Assembly: GCA_003670475.1 (NCBI GenBank)
Contig: QWRJ01000005.1
Coordinates: 5,216-46,002, forward strand
Length of the DNA stretch: 40,787 nt
Reading direction: 5' to 3'
From: Candidatus Limnocylindrus sp. ZSMar2m-chloro-G89
GTDB taxonomy: Bacteria > Chloroflexota > Limnocylindria > Limnocylindrales > Limnocylindraceae
The notes under the pieces: generated by a model
Databases searched by the model: none
Told to the model about the DNA's origin: nothing
What the model saw: only the letters and a program-made list of their open reading frames with translations
Translations under genes and position numbers: made by a program
Shown here: one piece after another, positions 20,518 through 28,910 of the stretch
Numbering within the stretch: the first letter of the stretch is position 1
Layout of the letters: each line of letters begins with the position of its first letter

Positions 20518-23412
20518 TTAGCTCGTTGCGCCGAGGAGCGCCGTCTCGCCAGAAGCCGCCGCGTAGGCATCCACAGGGAGGCAGGCACAAACCACATTGC
20601 GATCGCCATGGACGTTGTCAATGCGGCGCACTGGCGGCCAGTACTTCCGCGCCTTCACCCATGGGAGCGGGAAGGCACCCTGCTCGCGGGAATACGGACG
20701 CGCCCAGTCGCTTCGCAACAGGTCGCTCGCCGTGTGCGGCGCGTTGCGTAACGCGCTCTGCTCTACTGGCGTCTTCCCCGCGGAGATGTCGCGGATCTCA
20801 GCGCGAATCTCACGGAGCGCATCAACATAGCGATCGAGCTCTGCTTTTGATTCTGATTCGGTTGGCTCAAGCATCAGCGTCCCAGGGACCGGCCAACTCA
20901 TGGTTGGCGCGTGGAATCCAAAATCCATCAGTCGCTTCGCAATATCTTCTACCGTGACGCCGCTCTCTTCAGTGATCCCGCGCACATCCAAGATGCACTC
21001 GTGCGCCACCGTTCCGGTGCGACCGGTGTAGAGAATTGGGAAGTCGCTGCGAAGTCTTGCCGCCATATAGTTCGCATTGAGGATGGCGATCTCCGTCGCC
21101 GAACGAATCCCCTCTGCGCCGAGTGCCGCAATGTACGCCCAGCTGATCGGCAGGATGCTCGCGCTTCCGTATGGTGCCGACGAGACGCGTCCCTCTTCGC
21201 CAAGTGCGAGACCTGGAAGGAACGGCGCGAGGTGCTGCACCACGCCGATTGGCCCCATCCCTGGTCCGCCACCACCATGGGGAATTGCGAACGTCTTGTG
21301 CAAATTGAGATGACAGACATCGGCGCCGAATGCGCCTGGCTGCGAGAGGCCGACCTGCGCATTCATGTTTGCGCCGTCCATATAGACCTGTCCGCCGGCC
21401 GCGTGCACCGCGTCGCAGATCTCGCGAATCGACTCTTCAAAGACGCCGTGCGTGCTCGGGTAGGTCACCATCAGCGCGCCGAGTGATGCGGCGTGTTCCG
21501 CAATCTTCGCCTTGAGGTCGCTCATGTCCACGTTGCCGTGATCGTCGCAACCAACAACCACCACGCGGAAGCCCGCCATTACGGCGCTCGCCGGATTCGT
21601 CCCGTGCGCGCTGCTCGGAATCAGGCAGACGGTTCGCTGTGTCTCGCCGCGCGAGCGGTGCCAGCGACGGATCGCGAGGAGTCCCGCGTACTCACCCTGC
21701 GATCCCGCGTTCGGCTGCAAGCTGACCGCCGCAAAGCCGGTGATCTCCGCAAGCCACGTCTCAAGATCGCGTGTGAGCTGCGCGTAGCCAGCGAGCCGCG
21801 CTGGATCGGAGAACGGATGCACGTTGACAAAGCCTCGATGACCGATCGCCTCCATCTCTGTGGTGGCGTTCAGCTTCATCGTGCAACTGCCGAGCGGGAT
21901 CATGGAGCGCGTCAGGCTCACATCCTTCTCCGCGAGTCGAAAGATGTAGCGAAGCATCTCACTCTCAGAGCGGTGTAGCGTGAAGACCGGGTGCGTCAGG
22001 ATCTCGTCGCTGCGTCGCAACGTAGCAGGGAGTGAATCGACCGCAGCGCCAGTCGACGACCCTGACGCGCCGAGCGCCTTCAGGAGCGCCGCAACATCCG
22101 CGTCCGAAGTCAACTCATCGCACGCAACGCCAACTCCCGTGCCGTCAATCCTGCGCAGCTCGTAGCCGGCGCTCGCAGCAGCAGCCAGGATCTGATCGGT
22201 GCGCGCGGCGCTGCCCGTCTCAACTGCGATCGCATCAAAGAAATGCTCGTGTCGCAGTGTCAGTCCAGACACGCTCCGCACACCCGTGGCGAGCGTTGCG
22301 GCGTGCGCGTGCACGCGTTCGGCGATTGCACGCAGCCCGTCTGGTCCGTGCCAGGCGGCGTACATGCTGGCGATCACGGCGAGGAGCACCTGCGCGGTGC
22401 AGATGTTTGAGGTCGCCTTCTCGCGACGAATGTGCTGTTCGCGCGTTTGCAGTGTGAGCCGATAGGCAGGGCTACCGTCTGCATCCACAGAGACGCCAAC
22501 AAGTCGACCGGGAAGGGAGCGCTTGAAGGCGTGACGTGTGGCCATGAAGGCGGCGTGCGGGCCGCCGTTCCCCATCGGCACGCCGAATCGCTGACTGCTC
22601 CCGATCACCACATCGGCACCTTGTGCGCCTGCGCTCTCCATGAGCACGGCGGCGAGAGGATCAGTGGCAACGATCACGAGCAGCTTCAAGGCATGCGCCG
22701 CCTCAACATCTGCGCGGATCGAACGCGCTGCACCGCTACTCCCTGGGTTTGAGATGAGCAGCACAAACGGTCGCTCGCCATCGCGCGGCGATGCGGCGCG
22801 CTGCAGCAACTCGGCAACCGGCGCAATCACGAGGATGATGTCAAGCGGCTCAGCGCGCGTCCTTAGCACGTCAATTGTTTGCGGGTGCGTATCTGCATCA
22901 ATGAGCACCAGGTTGCCGTCAGCAACGCTACTCACCGCATGCGCGAGCGTCACCGCCTCCGCGGCCGCAGTTCCTTCATCGAGTAGTGATGCATTCGCGA
23001 TCTCCATCCCAGTGAGGTCACAGATGGCGGTCTGGAAGTTGATCAGCGCCTCAAGTCGGCCCTGCGCAATCTCTGGTTGGTACGGCGTGTAGGCGGTGTA
23101 CCAGGCGGGATTCTCCAAGATGTTGCGCTTAATGACTGGTGGCGTAATCGTGTTGTGATAGCCCGCGCCGATGAAGCTCTTCAGTGGCGTGTTGCGCTGC
23201 GCCATCTCGCGCAGTGCGGTGGCAACCTCCGCCTCGGTTCGCGCGGCGGGAACGTTGAGTGGTGCGGCACGAAGGATGCTCTCCGGCACGGTGTCGTGGA
23301 TCAGCGCGCTGAGTGAGTCGCGTCCAATGACGCGCAGCATCTCGGCAGCCTCAGACGCGTCGGGGCCAATGTGGCGATCAGCAAAGTTGTGTGTTCGCTG
23401 TGATCCGGACAT
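20518..23412 (-). CDS. gcvP: Glycine dehydrogenase (decarboxylating), single-chain P protein
   Basis: FADRHIGP, YTAYTPYQPEIAQGRLE, TREQHIRREKATSNICTAQ, LGSCTMKLN, HLNLHKTF. The true start is ATG 23412; the track's extension runs through the riboswitch. Confidence 0.97.
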   Translation of the reverse strand: MSGSQRTHNFADRHIGPDASEAAEMLRVIGRDSLSALIHDTVPESILRAAPLNVPAARTEAEVATALREMAQRNTPLKSFIGAGYHNTITPPVIKRNILENPAWYTAYTPYQPEIAQGRLEALINFQTAICDLTGMEIANASLLDEGTAAAEAVTLAHAVSSVADGNLVLIDADTHPQTIDVLRTRAEPLDIILVIAPVAELLQRAASPRDGERPFVLLISNPGSSGAARSIRADVEAAHALKLLVIVATDPLAAVLMESAGAQGADVVIGSSQRFGVPMGNGGPHAAFMATRHAFKRSLPGRLVGVSVDADGSPAYRLTLQTREQHIRREKATSNICTAQVLLAVIASMYAAWHGPDGLRAIAERVHAHAATLATGVRSVSGLTLRHEHFFDAIAVETGSAARTDQILAAAASAGYELRRIDGTGVGVACDELTSDADVAALLKALGASGSSTGAAVDSLPATLRRSDEILTHPVFTLHRSESEMLRYIFRLAEKDVSLTRSMIPLGSCTMKLNATTEMEAIGHRGFVNVHPFSDPARLAGYAQLTRDLETWLAEITGFAAVSLQPNAGSQGEYAGLLAIRRWHRSRGETQRTVCLIPSSAHGTNPASAVMAGFRVVVVGCDDHGNVDMSDLKAKIAEHAASLGALMVTYPSTHGVFEESIREICDAVHAAGGQVYMDGANMNAQVGLSQPGAFGADVCHLNLHKTFAIPHGGGGPGMGPIGVVQHLAPFLPGLALGEEGRVSSAPYGSASILPISWAYIAALGAEGIRSATEIAILNANYMAARLRSDFPILYTGRTGTVAHECILDVRGITEESGVTVEDIAKRLMDFGFHAPTMSWPVPGTLMLEPTESESKAELDRYVDALREIRAEIRDISAGKTPVEQSALRNAPHTASDLLRSDWARPYSREQGAFPLPWVKARKYWPPVRRIDNVHGDRNVVCACLPVDAYAAASGETALLGATS

Positions 23413-23433
23413 GGCGGCACCCCCTCGGTGCCC

Positions 23434-23642
23434 CGCTGTCCTTCTGCCTGAGAGCATCCCTGCGACGCAACAAGCGTTCGCAAGTTCCTCCGTCGGCGCG
23501 CTGCGCGGATCACTCCACTCAACGCTCTCCAGCGTCCCCATCCCCGCGCGGTCCATCTGCCTGAGAGGTTCCGGACCGTTGCTCCGTCGGCGCCGCAGCT
23601 GCGATCAGTGTGACCCGATCACCCCACGAACTCTTCCGCGCG
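23434..23642 (-). ncRNA. Tandem glycine riboswitch (aptamer 1 about 23546-23642, aptamer 2 about 23434-23534)
   Basis: Two copies of the pattern GG(A)AGAG...CGCCGACGGAG.AA...CUCUCAGG.AGA.GGAC, each with a P1 stem, directly upstream of gcvP. Confidence 0.93.
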
Positions 23643-23683
23643 ATTCACTTGAGGGTTCTACGTGCATCTTACTACTGAACGGC

Positions 23684-24139
23684 TCACCCCTGGATGCGAA
23701 GTTCCACCTCGGTTGCCTCGCGGTTCACGATCCACCAGGCGCGAATCCCTGGCTCACCGTCTGGAGCCGACTGGCTCTGCGCGAGGGAGACGATCAGGTA
23801 GAGCGCGTCGGGGTAGCCGGCCACGCCAGTGTCCGTGACCGACGGCTTCGCCGGTGATGCAACGTGGGAGTGGACGATCCCCCAGATCACCTCGTCCGCG
23901 TCATCCGCGGCGATGCTGATGCGCAAGAGCTGTGCCGGATCAATCTCATAGAGCGTTGAGGAGGCGAGCACGTTCATGGTTGGCTCCCATCGCAACGGCG
24001 CGCCGCTTGATGCAGCCGACGCACCCCCAATGATGATTCCGCACGCTTCGCGCGGCGACTCGGCTCGCGCATGTGCGCGGATCGCATCAGCGATCTTTCG
24101 TGGCAGCGAGATCTGTGTTGGACGTTCAGCGAGGCTCAC
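23684..24139 (-). CDS. mec: JAB/MPN/Mov34 (M67) metallopeptidase, Mec-like sulfur-carrier peptidase
   Basis: PREACG and HSHVASPAKPSVTD (HxH-x7-S-x2-D); last gene of the cysO/cysM operon. Confidence 0.88.
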   Translation of the reverse strand: MSLAERPTQISLPRKIADAIRAHARAESPREACGIIIGGASAASSGAPLRWEPTMNVLASSTLYEIDPAQLLRISIAADDADEVIWGIVHSHVASPAKPSVTDTGVAGYPDALYLIVSLAQSQSAPDGEPGIRAWWIVNREATEVELRIQG

Positions 24140-24163
24140 TTCGCAGCGCTCATGAATTTTGCG

Positions 24164-25117
24164 CTACCACCAGAAGACATCGCCCTCGAGCGCGTCCTCC
24201 ATCTCGTCAAGGTTTCCATCACCGAGTCCAGCAGAGAAATACTTCCAGCCAGCATCACAGGCGATAAAGACGATGTTGCTGTTTGGTGCTGCGTCGCGCG
24301 CAACACGCAGCGCAACGGCGAGCGTTGCGCCAGTTGATGGTCCAGCAAGGATGCCGCTACTGCGCGCAAGTGCGCGCGCCGCCATAATGGAGTCACGGCT
24401 GTTCACCAGCACGCGTCCGGCGAGCAGCTCGGTCTCCATCACCTCGGGCGTGAAGCCGTCTTCAAGCGATCGGAGTCCGGTGACCTTCTCGCCCGGCATC
24501 GGCTCAGCGGCCCAAATCTTGACGCTCGGCTTCTCGCGCACGAAGTAGCGCGCAAGGCCCGTGGCGGTGCCGCCAGTGCCGAGACCGGCAACAACAACAT
24601 CCACCTCGGGGAGATCGGTGAGGATCTCTGGCGCGGTGGTCACCTCGTGCACCTTCGGGTTCGCCTGGTTGCTGTACTGATCTGGCATGACGTACTTGGT
24701 GTCTCCCTTTGCCATGGCGCGTGCGAGCAGAACGGCGCCGTTTGACCCTTGATCGGCTGGGGAGTCAATGATCGTGGCGCCGAGCGCGCGCACGAAGGCG
24801 CGGCGCTCTTCGGTCACGTTTGCTGGCATCACCAGCGTGAGCGGGATGCTGCGTGCCGCGGCGTGCACGGCAAGCGCGGCACCAGTGTTCCCACTCGTTG
24901 GCTCAAGGAGCTCCTTCCCAGGTGTGAGCAGCCCCTTGAAGAGGAGGTCGTCAATCAGCGCCTTGGCGGTGCGGTCCTTAATGGAGCCGGTTGGCCCAAG
25001 GAGTTCCACTTTGGCGAAGAGGTGGATCCCCTTCGCGCGCGCCGCTTCAGGGAGAAGCGCGTCAACGCGAATGAGCGGCGTGCCGCCGATCACCTCCCCG
25101 ATCTGTTCGTAGCGCAC
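24164..25117 (-). CDS. cysM: PLP-dependent cysteine synthase, sulfur-carrier-dependent CysM type
   Basis: PTGSIKDR, EPTSGNTG, DQYSN.AN, GLGTGGT, DAGWKY; adjacent to cysO and mec. Confidence 0.88.
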   Translation of the reverse strand: MRYEQIGEVIGGTPLIRVDALLPEAARAKGIHLFAKVELLGPTGSIKDRTAKALIDDLLFKGLLTPGKELLEPTSGNTGAALAVHAAARSIPLTLVMPANVTEERRAFVRALGATIIDSPADQGSNGAVLLARAMAKGDTKYVMPDQYSNQANPKVHEVTTAPEILTDLPEVDVVVAGLGTGGTATGLARYFVREKPSVKIWAAEPMPGEKVTGLRSLEDGFTPEVMETELLAGRVLVNSRDSIMAARALARSSGILAGPSTGATLAVALRVARDAAPNSNIVFIACDAGWKYFSAGLGDGNLDEMEDALEGDVFWW

Positions 25118-25410
25118 TAGCGCGCGCTACCGAGTGCGCCGCCCGCCATCGCTGGAAGGATCACCACTTCAATCCCGTCCTGAGTTGGCGTTTCAAGTCC
25201 TGCAAGATGGCGCACATCGGCGCCATCAACGTAGACGTTCACCCAGCGGCGCAGCGTGCCGTCCGCTTCGAAGATTTGCTCGCGCAGATCTGGGTGCGCC
25301 GCAGTCAGAGCGGTGAGCACCGCACTAAGCGACGCGCCATCAACGCTAACGAGCTTTGCGCCGCCGGTCTGAGTCCTGAGTACTGGTGGAATCCTGACGC
25401 TGATGCTCAT
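25117..25410 (-). CDS. cysO: MoaD/ThiS-family ubiquitin-like sulfur carrier (CysO-like) with a C-terminal extension after GG
   Basis: VRIPPVLR..TGG, LRRWVNVYV, ILPAMAGG followed by ALGSAR; ATGA overlap with moeZ. Confidence 0.88.
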   Translation of the reverse strand: MSISVRIPPVLRTQTGGAKLVSVDGASLSAVLTALTAAHPDLREQIFEADGTLRRWVNVYVDGADVRHLAGLETPTQDGIEVVILPAMAGGALGSAR

Positions 25411-26513
25411 GCTGCTCCCCCTTTCGCTGTGCCGTCGCCGCACGCAACGCAGTGCGGATCTCGTTTCACTGTGAGCTCCGTAAAGGTCCCCTCAAGTGCA
25501 TCCCAAAGAAGGAGGCGGCCGATCAGCGGCTCGCCAATCCTGAGCAGCATCTTGAGCGCCTCAGTTGCCTGCAGCACGCCGATCACGCCCGGAAGGACGC
25601 CAAGCACGCCAGCAACGCCACAGCTCGGCGCCATCTCCGCCGGCGGCGGTGTTGGATGAAGGCAGCGGTAGCAGGGGCCACGCCCTGGCGCGAGAACGGT
25701 GAGCTGCCCCTCAAAGCGGAAGACGCCTGCATGCACCACAGGGATGCCGAGCTTCACCGCCGCATCATTCAGCGCGTAGCGTGCCTCAAAGGTGTCGGTG
25801 CCGTCAATGACGAGATCCACGCCATTCAACAGAGATGCAACGTTCTCGGTGGTGAGCATGTCGTTGATCGGCTCAACCTCAACGTCTGGATTGAGTGCGC
25901 GAATCTGCACTGCAGCGGACTCCACCTTCAACATCCCAACGCGATCAGTGGTGTGGATCACCTGACGCTGCAGGTTAGATGCCTCTACAGAATCGAAGTC
26001 GATGATGCGCAACTTGCCAACGCCAGCCGCCGCAAGATAGAGCGCCGCCGGTGCGCCGAGTCCTCCTGCGCCAACCATCAGCACGCGTGAGTTCAGCAAC
26101 TTTGTCTGACCGTCAGCACCAACGCCAGGGAGAAGGAGGTGACGCGAGTAGCGTGACTTCTGCTCTGGCGTCAGCGTGGTCGTCTCAACAACAGGGAGGC
26201 CAGCGGCGCTCCAACCGTTGATGCCACCAGCCATTGACGTGAGATTGGTGTAACCGAGTCCAGCAAGCGTCTCTGCCGCTGCGGCAGAGCGCACACCACC
26301 CGCGCAGTAGAGCAAGATCGGCGCAGACTTCTCTGGTGCAATGTTTGGGATGGTGAAGCTGATCATCCCCTTCGGCGCGTGTGTTGCGCCGTGCAAGTAG
26401 CCCGCGTCCCACTCGTTCTGCTCACGGACATCAATCAGCAGTGGCGGCGTTGGTGATTCGAGCAGCTGCTGCGCCGCCTTCGCATCCACTTCGGTGAAAA
26501 GCTTCGTTGTCAT
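25407..26513 (-). CDS. moeB: Rhodanese-ThiF/MoeB fusion (MoeZ-like adenylyltransferase/sulfurtransferase, rhodanese N-terminal)
   Basis: DVRE...YCAGGVRS rhodanese; RYSRH, GAGGLG, SNLQRQ, CYRC, SCGVAGVLG, CVAC. Start ATG 26513 is coupled to the upstream stop (TGATG). Confidence 0.9.
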   Translation of the reverse strand: MTTKLFTEVDAKAAQQLLESPTPPLLIDVREQNEWDAGYLHGATHAPKGMISFTIPNIAPEKSAPILLYCAGGVRSAAAAETLAGLGYTNLTSMAGGINGWSAAGLPVVETTTLTPEQKSRYSRHLLLPGVGADGQTKLLNSRVLMVGAGGLGAPAALYLAAAGVGKLRIIDFDSVEASNLQRQVIHTTDRVGMLKVESAAVQIRALNPDVEVEPINDMLTTENVASLLNGVDLVIDGTDTFEARYALNDAAVKLGIPVVHAGVFRFEGQLTVLAPGRGPCYRCLHPTPPPAEMAPSCGVAGVLGVLPGVIGVLQATEALKMLLRIGEPLIGRLLLWDALEGTFTELTVKRDPHCVACGDGTAKGGAA

Positions 26514-27031
26514 CAGCGCCCACTCCCCTTTGTCATGCGAATCTTCTGCGGTGCAATCTTTGTTGCACCCTGCGGAAGACTGCGGTTCTGGAACCAAACC
26601 ACTACTCCGTAGAGCTTGCAAGCGACACAGATTCCCGTGATCGCCAGGAACGACTGCAGCGTAGCAACAGTCACCACGAGTGCAAGCGCAACGAGATCCG
26701 CTGCGAACGCAGTATCGGCAAGTACGCCGAGGAGAAGCATCGTGCCCCCCATCACCTGCGCGAGGCGAAGTCCTGGTACCGGCTGAAGGTCTTTCGGTGC
26801 AGGTGCGCCAATCACGCCGCGTTCGCGAAGGATGCGGAACGGTAGGCCGAGAAGGCTGACGCGCAGCCCGGTGGCCGCGCTAAGGAGCATTGCGGCGGCG
26901 ATCGCTGCGACAAGGAGCGCCGATGCGCTTCCTGTTGGCTGGTTGACGTGGAGCAGTGCCGCAACGCCAAGGAGCAGCACGCTGATCGCGGCGCCGGTGC
27001 GGAATCCTCGTGAGTCAGTCATCTGAGACAT
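26513..27031 (-). CDS. DUF4395-family membrane protein
   Basis: Four TM segments, RLAQVMG, GICVACKLY CxxC motif; GAGG SD before ATG 27031 (in-frame GTG at 27040 is an alternative). Confidence 0.75.
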   Translation of the reverse strand: MSQMTDSRGFRTGAAISVLLLGVAALLHVNQPTGSASALLVAAIAAAMLLSAATGLRVSLLGLPFRILRERGVIGAPAPKDLQPVPGLRLAQVMGGTMLLLGVLADTAFAADLVALALVVTVATLQSFLAITGICVACKLYGVVVWFQNRSLPQGATKIAPQKIRMTKGSGR

Positions 27032-27133
27032 CTGGTTCACCTCATCAGTTGAAGTTCGGGGTGGATGGCCGTAGGGGCCATGTGTTGGGACGCAGCCGGC
27101 GTCCCTTCCACCCGGGAGACTTCTGCGAGGTGC

Positions 27134-27226
27134 TTAGCGCGCGAGAAGTCGCGGGGCGGGAGACGACGGCCGTCGACAGATGGACGGCTCCCCGGCTACG
27201 GACGCGATTAGTTCTGCTGCACTCAT
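27134..27226 (-). CDS. Putative leaderless leader peptide, 30 aa (MSAAELIASVAGEPSICRRPSSPAPRLLAR)
   Basis: -10 TAGAGT (27233-27238) exactly 6 nt before ATG, as at other leaderless genes here; one Cys codon; followed by a structured spacer of about 100 nt. Confidence 0.5.
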   Translation of the reverse strand: MSAAELIASVAGEPSICRRPSSPAPRLLAR

Positions 27227-27252
27227 GCTGTAACTCTACCCGAGGAGCAGCA

Positions 27253-27642
27253 TCACGACTTGTTGCGCCACGTTGCAATTGCCTTCTGCGTGGTCTCCAG
27301 GCCAAGCAGGGCGCAGTGGATCCGAGCTGGGCCCACCTCAATCCCGAGCAGCTCCGTCACGTACGGGGTCCCCAGTTCGGTGATCTCATCGGCGCGCTTG
27401 CCGCGCAGTTCGTCCGTGAGGAGCGAAGCGGAAGCCTGCGAGATGGCGCAGCCGCGACCACTAAAGGCAACGTCCGTGATCACGCCAGCGTCGTCCAGCT
27501 TCAACTGCATCGTGACCAGGTCGCCGCAGCTCGGGTTGCGGCCATCAATGCTGACGCTCGGCTGCTCGAGTGCACCAAAGTTGTGCGGCGCACGGTGATG
27601 CTCAAGGATCTGCTCTCTATAAAGATCGTCAACACCGCCCAC
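27253..27642 (-). CDS. sufU: SUF system NifU-family protein SufU
   Basis: LYREQILEH, NPSCGD, GCAISQASAS, ARIHCALL. Confidence 0.93.
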   Translation of the reverse strand: MGGVDDLYREQILEHHRAPHNFGALEQPSVSIDGRNPSCGDLVTMQLKLDDAGVITDVAFSGRGCAISQASASLLTDELRGKRADEITELGTPYVTELLGIEVGPARIHCALLGLETTQKAIATWRNKS

Positions 27643-27653
27643 AGCAGCCGCTC

Positions 27654-28910
27654 CTATCGCTCGAAGATCTTCCGCGCATCGCGCAGCCCCTCAAAGAGGG
27701 CATCGAGGTCTTCGTCGGTGGTGTACGGCGCCACGCTCACCCGCGCCGTGGCCGAGAGTTCCAGCTGTTCGTGAAGCGGCATGGCGCAGTGGTGTCCAGC
27801 GCGAATCGCCACCCCGCGTCGATCCAGGATGGTGGCGAGGTCGTGGGCGTGCACCAGGTCGCTAGAGAAGCTCACTAAGCCCGCGCGATCCTTCGCGTTC
27901 TTTGGCCCAAGGATGCGCGCATCTGGAAGGGCCTCTGGAAGTTCGCGCAGCACGCGCTCAAGCATGCGCACCTCATGGTCATGAATCTGCTGGCGACCGA
28001 GTTCGTCAAGGAACTCGCAGGCGGCGGCGAGCGCCACCGTGCCAGATGCATCGGGCGTCCCCGCCTCAAAGCGTTGCGTCCCTTCCGCAAATGTTGCGTC
28101 GCGTAGGCGCACTTCGCGAATCATGTCGCCGCCCGTCTCAATCGGCGCCATTGCCTCAAGGAGGTTCGCGCGCGCCCAGAGTCCGCCGCCGGAGAAGAGT
28201 CCGCCCATCTTGTGTGCGCTAAACGCGTAGAAGTCTGCGCCAGTACCCAAGATGTTCACTGGCATATTCGCTACTGCTTGGCATCCATCAACAGCAAGGA
28301 GTCCACCAACTGAATGAATCTGTGGTGCGATCTGCGCGAGTGGGGCAATAGAACCGAGCACATTGGAGACGTGTCCAATTGCAACGATCTTCGGGCGCAG
28401 CTTCAGTAGTCCGTCTAAACGATCCCAAAGGATCTCGCCGGTCACATCATCAACGGGGATGAACTCAAGGTCTGCGTCCACTTCACGCGTCACCTGCTGC
28501 CACGGAATCAGATTCGCGTGATGCTCCGCCTCCGTCACCAACACCACATCGCCACGCGAAAGGTTGCCCTTACCCCATGAACGTGCAACAAGGTTCAGTG
28601 CCTCCGTGGCGCTGCCGAGCATCACGAGTTCAGTTGCGGGAACGCCGAGGAATGTTGCGGTGCGCGTGCGCGCCGCCTCATACGCATCCGTTGCCATGGA
28701 GCCGAGCGTGTACGCGCCGCGATGCGGATTCGCATTGCCAGTGAGCAGGAACTCGGAGACGGCATCAATTACAGGCTTCGGTCGTTGCGCCGTTGCGGCG
28801 GAGTCGAGGTAGTGCAGTGGGCGGCCGCCAGGCTTCGTTGCAAGGATCGGATATGCGGCGCGAACCTTTGCTGGATCAAGTTGCCCGGCTGGGGTGTGCC
28901 AGGCGGTCAT
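27654..28910 (-). CDS. sufS: SufS-type cysteine desulfurase
   Basis: [41 protein letters not shown] (type II motif). Confidence 0.93.

Follow-up and report, generated by a model that had tools for sequence, protein, structure and literature searches.

In a 40,787-nt stretch of the genome of Candidatus Limnocylindrus sp. ZSMar2m-chloro-G89 (referred to below as the window), the gene for a DUF4395 protein is separated from sufU by a gap of 221 nt (27032-27252, between the sufU stop at 27253 and the DUF4395 ATG at 27031), close to the roughly 220 nt that an initial annotation of this DNA had given. We are fairly confident that this gap holds a real, conserved and very probably translated cis-regulatory leader open reading frame (ORF) tied to cysteine and sulfur metabolism. 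With less confidence, we consider it probable that this short ORF (sORF) of 30 codons is a cis-acting, ribosome-mediated cysteine sensor for DUF4395-moeZ-cysO-cysM-mec, working by a relay of RNA pairings that is set off by a ribosome pause. Coordinates are collected in Table 1.

A conserved leader ORF in the gap

The initial annotation had pointed out a TAGAGT box 6 nt ahead of an ATG that opens a 30-aa ORF with a lone Cys at codon 17. All of these could be found in the sequence, and the encoded peptide begins with MSAAELIASVAGEPSICRR. A match to the gap DNA was obtained in 17 of 24 further genomes from the genus and in none of 16 genomes of the neighbouring family. The best-conserved stretch of the gap is the sORF (query positions 34-127), which is also the only part that aligns in more distant genomes. 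The length of 30 codons is kept in all 18 related places first examined; together with the conserved position of the Cys codon and spacing of the -10-like box, this bears out the initial proposal in relatives. A TAnnnT box lies 6 nt (42 cases) or 7 nt (22 cases) before the start codon in all 64 unique leaders of the three paralogue types described below. This spacing would imply a leaderless transcript that starts at or next to 27226, and from the sequence the leader transcript is most likely leaderless.

The substitution pattern of the sORF is that of a coding sequence. Among 23 unique ORFs of the window's type (type A), codons 2-17 show 20 extra synonymous codons and 5 extra amino acids, while the same stretch read in the other frames gives 5:22 and 1:23 (synonymous:amino acid). 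For codons 2-17 of type B, the counts are 15:9 in frame versus 3:20 and 2:19 in the other frames, and for type C they are 7:2 in frame versus 1:8 and 1:8. The ratios for codons 18-30 are 14:20 in type A and 0:11 in type B. The amino acids at codons 18-28 of type A change freely; hardly any variation is seen at the two final codons and the stop, which read GCG CGC UAA (rarely UAG). Purifying selection covers the peptide through the Cys, not the residues after it. Inside the GEPSIC motif (codons 12-17), the Gly, Glu and Ser codons vary synonymously, with Ser15 written as TCC, TCG, TCA or AGC, and the codons CCG, ATC and TGT are invariant in all 52 unique ORFs. TGT is the minor Cys codon of the genome (319 TGT versus 1215 TGC in 455 long ORFs). 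Judged by sequence comparison, the conservation and frame-specific substitution pattern of the sORF are far beyond chance, and the same comparison indicates that it is very probably translated.

Three types of leader within the genus

A search with the peptide profile found further places in the same genomes, and three types of leader can be told apart, all of them with a -10 box at a like distance. Type A is the element of the window, with 30 codons, preceding DUF4395. Type B (M[TS]AA[DE]LIAQAAGEPSICRCPSLSFGPSCAR, 30 codons) is found ahead of cysK-cysE, which encode a PALP enzyme and a hexapeptide acyltransferase. Type C (MTS[TSM]QLRALEGEPSIC-stop) has only 16 codons, ends in GEPSIC directly followed by the stop, and precedes a two-domain rhodanese and SufE. 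Types A and C contain one Cys codon and type B three non-adjacent ones (C17, C19 and C28), of which those other than the GEPSIC codon are TGC. Outside the genus, the matches of the peptide profile are weak (E 2.6e-4 to 0.009).

Several sulfur or cysteine loci per genome are thus headed by a co-oriented leader, and we propose that the three GEPSIC leaders make up a leader-peptide regulon over DUF4395(-moeZ-cysO-cysM-mec), cysK-cysE and rhodanese-sufE. Of 41 other genomes in the genus, 26 had a match to type C DNA; in 19 it extended beyond the 30-nt core that type C has in common with type A, and in 7 it was confined to this core. Six genomes of the genus were scored for DUF4395; three have both DUF4395 and a type A leader, and three have neither. 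No type B leader was found in the window's own genome, the assembly of which (0.98 Mb) is 70% complete. This genome contains two copies of type C with a rhodanese gene (C51:7913-8088, plus strand, and C33:3879-4054, minus strand) that are 93% identical, and several other genomes of the genus likewise show two copies. These may be paralogues or reflect a strain mixture in the bins. In one Limnocylindrus record, a gene of the bacteriorhodopsin family by Pfam (L047:2142-2882, plus strand) lies directly upstream of the cysK leader.

A CxC leader throughout the Limnocylindria

DUF4395 homologues occur in 31 of 151 genomes of the class Limnocylindria; a tblastn search with the DUF4395 protein of the window missed distant homologues that were later found by Pfam. 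Outside the genus there are 26 loci, one of them with only 63 nt of upstream sequence. An sORF with a CxC followed by Arg lies 74-183 nt upstream of the DUF4395 match in 19 of these, and one more has an sORF that overlaps the match. Examples of the encoded peptides are MTRELLCLHEGEPCICRRRGLATVGHAFRY, MADLLRRLEGEPCTCPRRVPAGYGRAVGH and shorter forms ending in GRCSCLRRA, and two further DUF4395 loci carry an SxC form (EGEPSTC). Many of the class-level sORFs are 28-31 codons long and have the second Cys at codon 16. In all 12 class leaders compared, this second Cys is encoded by TGT, which is followed by one codon and then by CGG CGA or CGG CGG.

Such an sORF was also seen in 26 of 53 further loci fetched with a DUF4395 alignment, by the same rule, which is crude, and with start codons that are uncertain in many cases. 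When one genome from each of 185,579 species was screened with the pattern [EQ]GE[PT]CxC[RTP]RR, 102 stretches matched and 19 were confirmed, nearly all of the latter from Limnocylindria or Chloroflexota. The ORFs downstream of 16 confirmed matches were put to Pfam (the remaining 3 of the 19 were not among them); 12 proved to be DUF4395, 3 had no family and 1 was an Fe-ADH.

Since CxC leaders precede DUF4395 throughout the class, the GEPSIC form of Limnocylindrus is a derived one, with the first Cys of the CxC having become Ser. On sequence grounds, the element descends from a Limnocylindria-wide CxC leader peptide (LEGEPCxCRRR) preceding DUF4395.

Some further features of the class leaders were noticed. 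The Arg pair after the CxC is written CGG CGA in 10 of the 12 leaders compared, without synonymous change (loci L129-L154 and L186-L213). Behind the stop of other Limnocylindria leaders, at a distance of 10-30 nt, there is a recurrent box, GCCUCGCG, that is complementary to the CGG CGA region over 6 nt. Four records titled as Methylomirabilota, Verrucomicrobia or Planctomycetota (L251, L242, L247 and L210) carry matches, L251 even a full sORF-DUF4395 module; these may be due to mis-binning, transfer or chance.

Alternative pairings in the leader RNA

The RNA segments named in the initial annotation are all in place (CGGGGAG at nt 33-39, GACUUCU at 77-83, CACCUC at 95-100, AGAAGUC at 103-109, ACUUCA at 172-177 and UGAGGU at 183-188, counted from the A of the ATG), and so is the repeat GUCUCCCG at 63-70 and 107-114. 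The minimum-free-energy fold of the free leader consists of two domains. In the first, the sORF folds on itself, with nt 4-13 pairing with nt 82-91 at the base. In the second, formed by the 3' untranslated region (3' UTR) of the sORF, CACCUC and AGAAGU pair with ACUUC and the Shine-Dalgarno (SD) sequence GAGGUG and close a three-way junction. Both the junction and the role of CACCUC as an anti-SD had been predicted, and both appear in this fold. The ACUUCA/UGAGGU hairpin that had been thought to bury the SD is not its main mask in the folds; CACCUC:GAGGUG is. The probability of being unpaired, P(unpaired), is 0.00 for the SD core in the free leader. CACCUC begins 1 nt after the stop codon of the sORF.

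Type A leaders fall into two subgroups, A1, to which the window's element belongs, and A2, in which DUF4395 stands alone; sufU lies upstream in both. With metagenome contigs added, the enlarged alignments comprised 32 A1 and 26 A2 leaders. CACCUC:GAGGUG pairs in all 32 A1 leaders and never varies, while the three-way-junction part differs between the subgroups. In every leader type, the Cys codon stands at the apex of a hairpin. The RNAalifold consensus of both subgroups is an alternative pairing, in which segment S2, the 3' half of the sORF (nt 62-89), pairs with nt 98-129 of segment S3 (nt 95-129) and the stop codon lies in the loop. This consensus contains the GACUUCU:AGAAGUC hairpin with UAA in its loop that had been put forward initially, and it holds in A1 and A2 despite their differing 3' UTR sequences. 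Both alternative pairings are possible in 98-99.5% of the alignment cells. The leader may have a four-segment layout of mutually exclusive pairings with the regulatory codon in segment 1 (S1, the 5' half of the sORF), as in classical attenuators; its energies are not clearly beyond those of shuffles. In one metagenome leader (L280:451-632), 9 nt around the DUF4395 start are duplicated in tandem.

Covariation was looked for in the enlarged alignments. The S2:S3 pair 81:106 covaries in A1 (CG in 15 and UA in 15 of the 32 leaders), and two pairs of the apex hairpin change on both sides in 2 of the 32 sequences (CCGUC/GACGG to CCGAG/CUCGG); none was found among the 26 A2 leaders. The pairings are kept in the leaders, as the initial annotation had required of its helices in relatives; since these helices hardly vary, they show little covariation.

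In 16 of 16 A1 and 9 of 11 A2 leaders, the first 30 nt behind the stop contain a stretch of 6 nt or more that is perfectly complementary to the ribosome-binding site, with sequences that differ; the figure for shuffles is about 2% of cases. In type B (1 of 18), type C (0 of 19) and the class-level leaders (12 of 42), post-stop anti-SDs within this distance are not beyond chance. The fold energy (z -2.09; 5 of 200 shuffles fold as well) is weak evidence when taken alone. The 3' UTRs of the leader types have no common structure, and U runs are confined to a part of the type C leaders. In line with the initial annotation, no described RNA family matches the gap: Rfam 15 gave no match at the gathering score, and a search with E up to 10 gave three chance-level matches on the other strand.

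A proposed pause-relay and its modelled effect

The RNA switch is inferred, and its steps would run as follows. When Cys-tRNA is scarce, the ribosome would pause with the rare UGU codon 17 in its A site and a nascent chain ending in AGEPSI. The paused ribosome would cover S1, so that S2 is free to pair with S3, which holds the anti-SD CACCUC. The SD in segment S4 would then be left weakly paired, and DUF4395 and the downstream genes could be translated. When cysteine is plentiful, the ribosome would reach the UAA and depart, and the sORF would fold on itself (S1:S2). With S1:S2 formed, CACCUC and AGAAGU would pair with ACUUC and GAGGUG and mask the ribosome-binding site. The polarity of this scheme (low cysteine meaning on) is taken from the function of the genes and from the mycobacterial precedent discussed below, not from the folds.

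To represent a stalled ribosome, everything up to 12 nt past the Cys codon was removed from folding. In A1, the cost of opening the ribosome-binding site then drops from 9.6 to 8.1 kcal/mol (by more than 1 in 12 of 16 leaders, and it rises in none), and in A2 from 9.1 to 6.8 kcal/mol (lowered in 9 of 11). It is unchanged in type B and falls from 6.8 to 5.7 kcal/mol in type C; among 42 class-level leaders, 20 show a lower and 9 a higher cost. With S1 masked, the choice of S3 between its partners leans more to S2 in 16 of 16 A1 leaders, from a mean of +3.5 to one of +0.6 kcal/mol. The S2:S3 conformer would be the first to form during transcription, and the small ACUUCA/UGAGGU hairpin is then all that holds the SD. 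In 4 of 5 A1 leaders modelled, this conformer is 0-3 kcal/mol away from the optimum; in the 3 of these 5 where it is not the optimum, the direct-path barrier is 17-28 kcal/mol. Type C is built differently, with sORF codons 4-11 pairing with the 3' UTR and the SD, an arrangement that resembles the mycobacterial leader Ms5788A. A ribosome at the Cys or the stop of type C raises the mean P(unpaired) of the SD from 0.32 to 0.55 (15 of 19 leaders). Folding only the RNA 3' of the stalled ribosome gave small or inconsistent effects. A model in which only the footprint was masked and pairing between upstream and downstream RNA was allowed left the accessibility of the SD unchanged; it was dropped as sterically unrealistic.

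Several results weigh against the pause-relay. At equilibrium, the effect of a ribosome at the Cys codon is small: the SD core of A1 stays paired, and over all 27 type A leaders the mean P(unpaired) of the SD is 0.14 in the free and 0.16 in the stalled state. A ribosome placed at the stop codon of the A1 leaders brings the opening cost down further (to 5.0 kcal/mol) than one at the Cys does, which fits plain translational coupling and would mean the opposite polarity. In A2, we observed no consistent shift of the S3 preference when S1 was masked. Nor is the opening cost of the ribosome-binding site above that of dinucleotide-shuffled leaders (9.6 versus 8.3 kcal/mol in A1, where 36 of 128 shuffles are at least as high; 9.1 versus 8.5 in A2, 8.8 versus 9.3 in B and 6.8 versus 6.9 in C). 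The duplex energies of S2:S3 and of S3 with the ribosome-binding site are only about 1-2 standard deviations better than shuffles, type B has no clear SD mask, and to these points the thin covariation has to be added. There is a single Cys codon, where the mycobacterial leaders were defined by at least two consecutive ones, and Ca. Limnocylindrus is uncultured.

Expression data add a further point to this list. The leader is present in four freshwater metatranscriptome runs from four studies as assembled contigs, which cannot show transcript starts. Contigs from two of the studies end at 27208 (X2) and 27220 (X5), and in X5 the contig depth is 12.5-34 over the leader versus 4.95 upstream; a start near 27226 is thereby hinted at weakly at most. 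Against such a start stands an X4 contig of a relative (17 differences) that spans 26913-27382 and runs through the proposed start into sufU, so that read-through from sufU may occur.

Alternative explanations

An arrest peptide like TnaC or SpeFL would account for part of these observations, although we regard it as unlikely. Here the signal would be free cysteine or some related sulfur compound rather than a shortage of Cys-tRNA, and the (L)EGEP(C/S)xC chain would respond to it by stalling the ribosome at the Cys or immediately behind it; stalled ribosomes would miss the stop codon, the anti-SD:SD helix would stay unmelted, and the operon would be repressed at high cysteine. TnaC, SpeFL and ErmCL are short leader ORFs whose amino-acid sequence is conserved up to the stall site, and the Limnocylindrus leaders share this property, as purifying selection acts on the whole peptide through the Cys and not after it. 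The motif is common to paralogues whose downstream RNA differs, and the 16-codon type C stops directly after the Cys, much as the stop of TnaC follows a critical Pro. It also fits that the anti-SD starts 1 nt past the stop and that the A1 site is more open with a ribosome at the stop than at the Cys (5.0 versus 8.1 kcal/mol). However, starvation for Cys-tRNA would stall ribosomes as well and thus shut off synthesis, and the type C SD becomes more accessible once a ribosome sits at the Cys or stop, which would mean induction at high ligand. The GEPSIC leaders have no sequence likeness to TnaC, SpeFL or ErmCL, and GEPSIC is not known to resemble any arrest motif. Finally, conserved residues other than Cys also occur in some of the Cys-tRNA-sensing mycobacterial leaders, as described by Canestrari et al. 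(10.1101/834739).

Plain translational coupling is somewhat less probable still. It would have the sORF translated constitutively, with the terminating ribosome transiently unmasking the DUF4395 SD and the Cys codon being incidental. CACCUC is within reach of a ribosome at the stop codon, and it is there that a ribosome lowers the A1 opening cost most. The same ribosome leaves the site closed in A2 (10.0 versus 9.1 kcal/mol in the free leader), and coupling does not explain why one Cys-containing motif stands at three cysteine or sulfur operons, nor the class-wide CxC, the invariant rare UGU and the conserved first 17 residues.

We also think it very improbable that the product of the sORF is a small protein in its own right, such as a micropeptide with a regulatory or a thiol- or sulfur-handling task that works with DUF4395 and the sulfur enzymes, and that the RNA pairings are incidental. 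Such a protein would agree with the purifying selection on residues 1-17 and with the constant association with DUF4395, a membrane protein in which a CxxC is invariant. But there are three paralogues, each at the extreme 5' end of a different operon; the 13 C-terminal residues are free to vary and one paralogue has only 16 residues; what is conserved is the length of the ORF and the position of the Cys, not a fold; and the tested mycobacterial analogues act in cis.

An RNA-only element, in which a riboswitch or protein-bound hairpin presents AUCUGU and the ORF is a by-product, would suit the nucleotides that are invariant despite synonymous options (CCG, ATC, TGT, CGA and the class-wide UGU-nnn-CGG-CGA) and the apex hairpin with the Cys codon in all types, but is the least probable of these readings given the frame-specific synonymous pattern, the Ser switch between TCN and AGC, the conserved start, stop and length, the lack of an Rfam match and the 3' UTRs without common structure.

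Comparison with known leader peptides

The initial annotation had named a mycobacterial precedent, the leaderless polycysteine sORF Ms5788A, and Canestrari et al. (2020, bioRxiv 10.1101/834739) confirm it. According to their preprint, leaderless polycysteine sORFs attenuate six or more cysteine loci of M. smegmatis (the 'Cys ribulon'), and the mycobacterial family includes Ms5788A / Rv0815A and Rv2334A. Ms5788A is a 90-nt sORF in which a ribosome paused in the Cys tract prevents the pairing of tract and SD, a mechanism tested by reporters and proteomics; the Ms5788 protein is described as 'small (159 AA) and hydrophobic', and DUF4395, with which the initial annotation had that operon begin, is not mentioned in the main text. 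The preprint also names the ErmCL and cat leaders. The Limnocylindrus leader is of like size (93 nt of sORF and 102 nt of spacer, versus 90 and 97 nt in Ms5788A). Both groups have an unannotated sORF that opens the transcript (in Limnocylindrus, by prediction), several cysteine or sulfur operons with a leader of their own (including cysK-cysE and a thiosulfate sulfurtransferase operon), an SD masked by leader RNA, no intrinsic terminator and a small hydrophobic protein as first gene.

The two also differ in several respects. Limnocylindrus has one Cys codon (CxC in relatives) in the middle of the ORF, at codon 17 of 30, whereas the mycobacterial leaders have 2-8 consecutive ones at the C-terminus. 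The 16 residues ahead of the Cys are conserved across the Limnocylindrus paralogues, unlike in the polycysteine leaders. In the Limnocylindrus folds, the partner of the SD is the CACCUC behind the stop codon and not the Cys tract as in mycobacteria, and for this reason the S2:S3 relay is needed. The host belongs to the Chloroflexota and is therefore non-actinobacterial, as had been claimed, and its element is known from sequence alone, whereas the mycobacterial ones were tested experimentally.

Other Cys leaders have been predicted. Seliverstov et al. (2005, PMC1262725) predict Cys leader peptides in a few Actinobacteria. As in our case, these are short ORFs with Cys codons upstream of cysteine genes, known from comparative genomics only and without a conserved terminator hairpin; they differ by runs of Cys codons near the stop, by their actinobacterial hosts and by a proposed Rho-dependent termination. 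The uORFC-8-2 motif of Rhodobacterales, as described by Brewer et al. (2021, PMC8632094), is a two-Cys upstream ORF with a terminator ahead of cysS. It likewise has its Cys codons (14-15) inside a stem, and stalling at low Cys-tRNA was proposed for it; unlike here, the two Cys codons are in tandem and mostly UGC, there is an intrinsic terminator with a U run, the target is a tRNA synthetase and the hosts are Alphaproteobacteria. The classical trp, his and leu attenuators, in which an intrinsic terminator with a U run competes with an antiterminator, have a feature that the Limnocylindrus leader lacks. The Limnocylindrus element would act in the manner of these leaders and is a variant of the mycobacterial cysteine leader-peptide attenuators, set apart by its invariant rare UGU, its nascent peptide under purifying selection and its fixed length of 30 codons. 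The initial interpretation largely holds. We found no publication on this element in the literature on Limnocylindrus and cysteine, on DUF4395 or on leaderless leader peptides of Chloroflexi.

Gene context of the leader

The genes around the leader all lie on the minus strand, in the order sufC, sufS, sufU, gap, DUF4395, moeZ, cysO, cysM, mec by Pfam, which confirmed the gene identities of the initial annotation. The order DUF4395-moeZ-cysO-cysM is kept in those A1 loci that reach far enough. The start codon of moeZ is uncertain; its longest ORF (from TTG 26621) overlaps the end of DUF4395 by 109 nt (26513-26621, minus strand), which reflects either a later true start of moeZ or a genuine gene overlap. 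Relatives show the same overlap of the protein matches. The DUF4395 proteins of the class have an invariant G-x-C-x-G-C near their C-terminus (C135 and C138 in the protein of the window; loci L128-L154), and since these proteins are hydrophobic, the CxxC may point to a chemistry of thiols or sulfur. A scan for consensus sigma-70 promoters gave 0 promoter-like sites, and a scan for intrinsic terminators in 26700-27700 gave 0 terminator-like sites. Further downstream, tandem glycine riboswitch aptamers (Rfam RF00504, 57.1 and 39.9 bits; 23434-23648, minus strand) lie directly upstream of gcvP (20518-23556). The second aptamer overlaps the start of the listed gcvP ORF, and the true start of gcvP is therefore probably further downstream.

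Table 1. Features of the leader and neighbouring genes, in coordinates of the window
Feature	Position	Strand	Basis
-10-like box TAGAGT, 6 nt before the sORF ATG	27233..27238	-	sequence
Leader sORF, 30 codons plus UAA (ATG 27226; stop 27136-27134), MSAAELIASVAGEPSICRRPSSPAPRLLAR	27134..27226	-	conservation, coding signature
GEPSIC peptide motif, codons 12-17, common to the three paralogue types	27176..27193	-	alignment
UGU at codon 17, the only Cys codon; proposed site of sensing or pausing	27176..27178	-	alignment
Apex hairpin GCCGUC/GACGGC (RNA nt 39-44/53-58), AUCUGU in loop, part of S1	27169..27188	-	folds
Segment S2 (RNA nt 62-89), 3' half of the sORF; alternative partners are the sORF 5' half and S3	27138..27165	-	folds
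Segment S3 (RNA nt 95-129), starts with anti-SD CACCUC (27127-27132), includes AGAAGUC	27098..27132	-	folds
Three-way-junction hairpins, GGGUGGA/UCCACCC enclosing GGGACGC/GCGUCCC and UGGCC/GGCCA	27061..27113	-	minimum-free-energy fold
Segment S4 (RNA nt 172-189), from ACUUCA to the SD GAGGUG (27038-27043)	27038..27055	-	folds
sufU	27253-27642	-	Pfam
DUF4395 gene, 172 aa from ATG 27031, first gene behind the leader	26513..27031	-	Pfam PF14340, E 8.3e-14
moeZ (ThiF and rhodanese), cysO (ThiS), cysM (PALP) and mec (JAB), presumed co-regulated	23684..26621	-	Pfam

Significance of the leader family

In the sources cited above, control by cysteine leader peptides has been tested in mycobacteria only and predicted in a few other groups. 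The leaders described here would extend it to an unrelated phylum, as a class-wide family in abundant, uncultured freshwater bacteria with very small genomes. Through the leader, the uncharacterised DUF4395, a membrane protein whose CxxC is invariant, would be tied by its regulation to the metabolism of cysteine and sulfur. Gene callers miss these sORFs, and the motif can therefore be used to annotate them.

The change from CxC to a single Cys, with the flanking peptide kept, raises the question whether a nascent peptide can make one codon enough for sensing. It is a speculative idea, and one that we would not bet on, that (L)EGEP(C/S)xC is a new nascent-peptide stalling module, in which, owing to the conserved chain inside the exit tunnel, a lone UGU that is read by wobble and followed by rare CGA/CGG codons or a stop would respond sensitively to Cys-tRNA, or even to free cysteine or reactive sulfur species. 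If this were true, such a module would let a streamlined 1.1-Mb bacterium run a three-operon sulfur regulon without a protein regulator.

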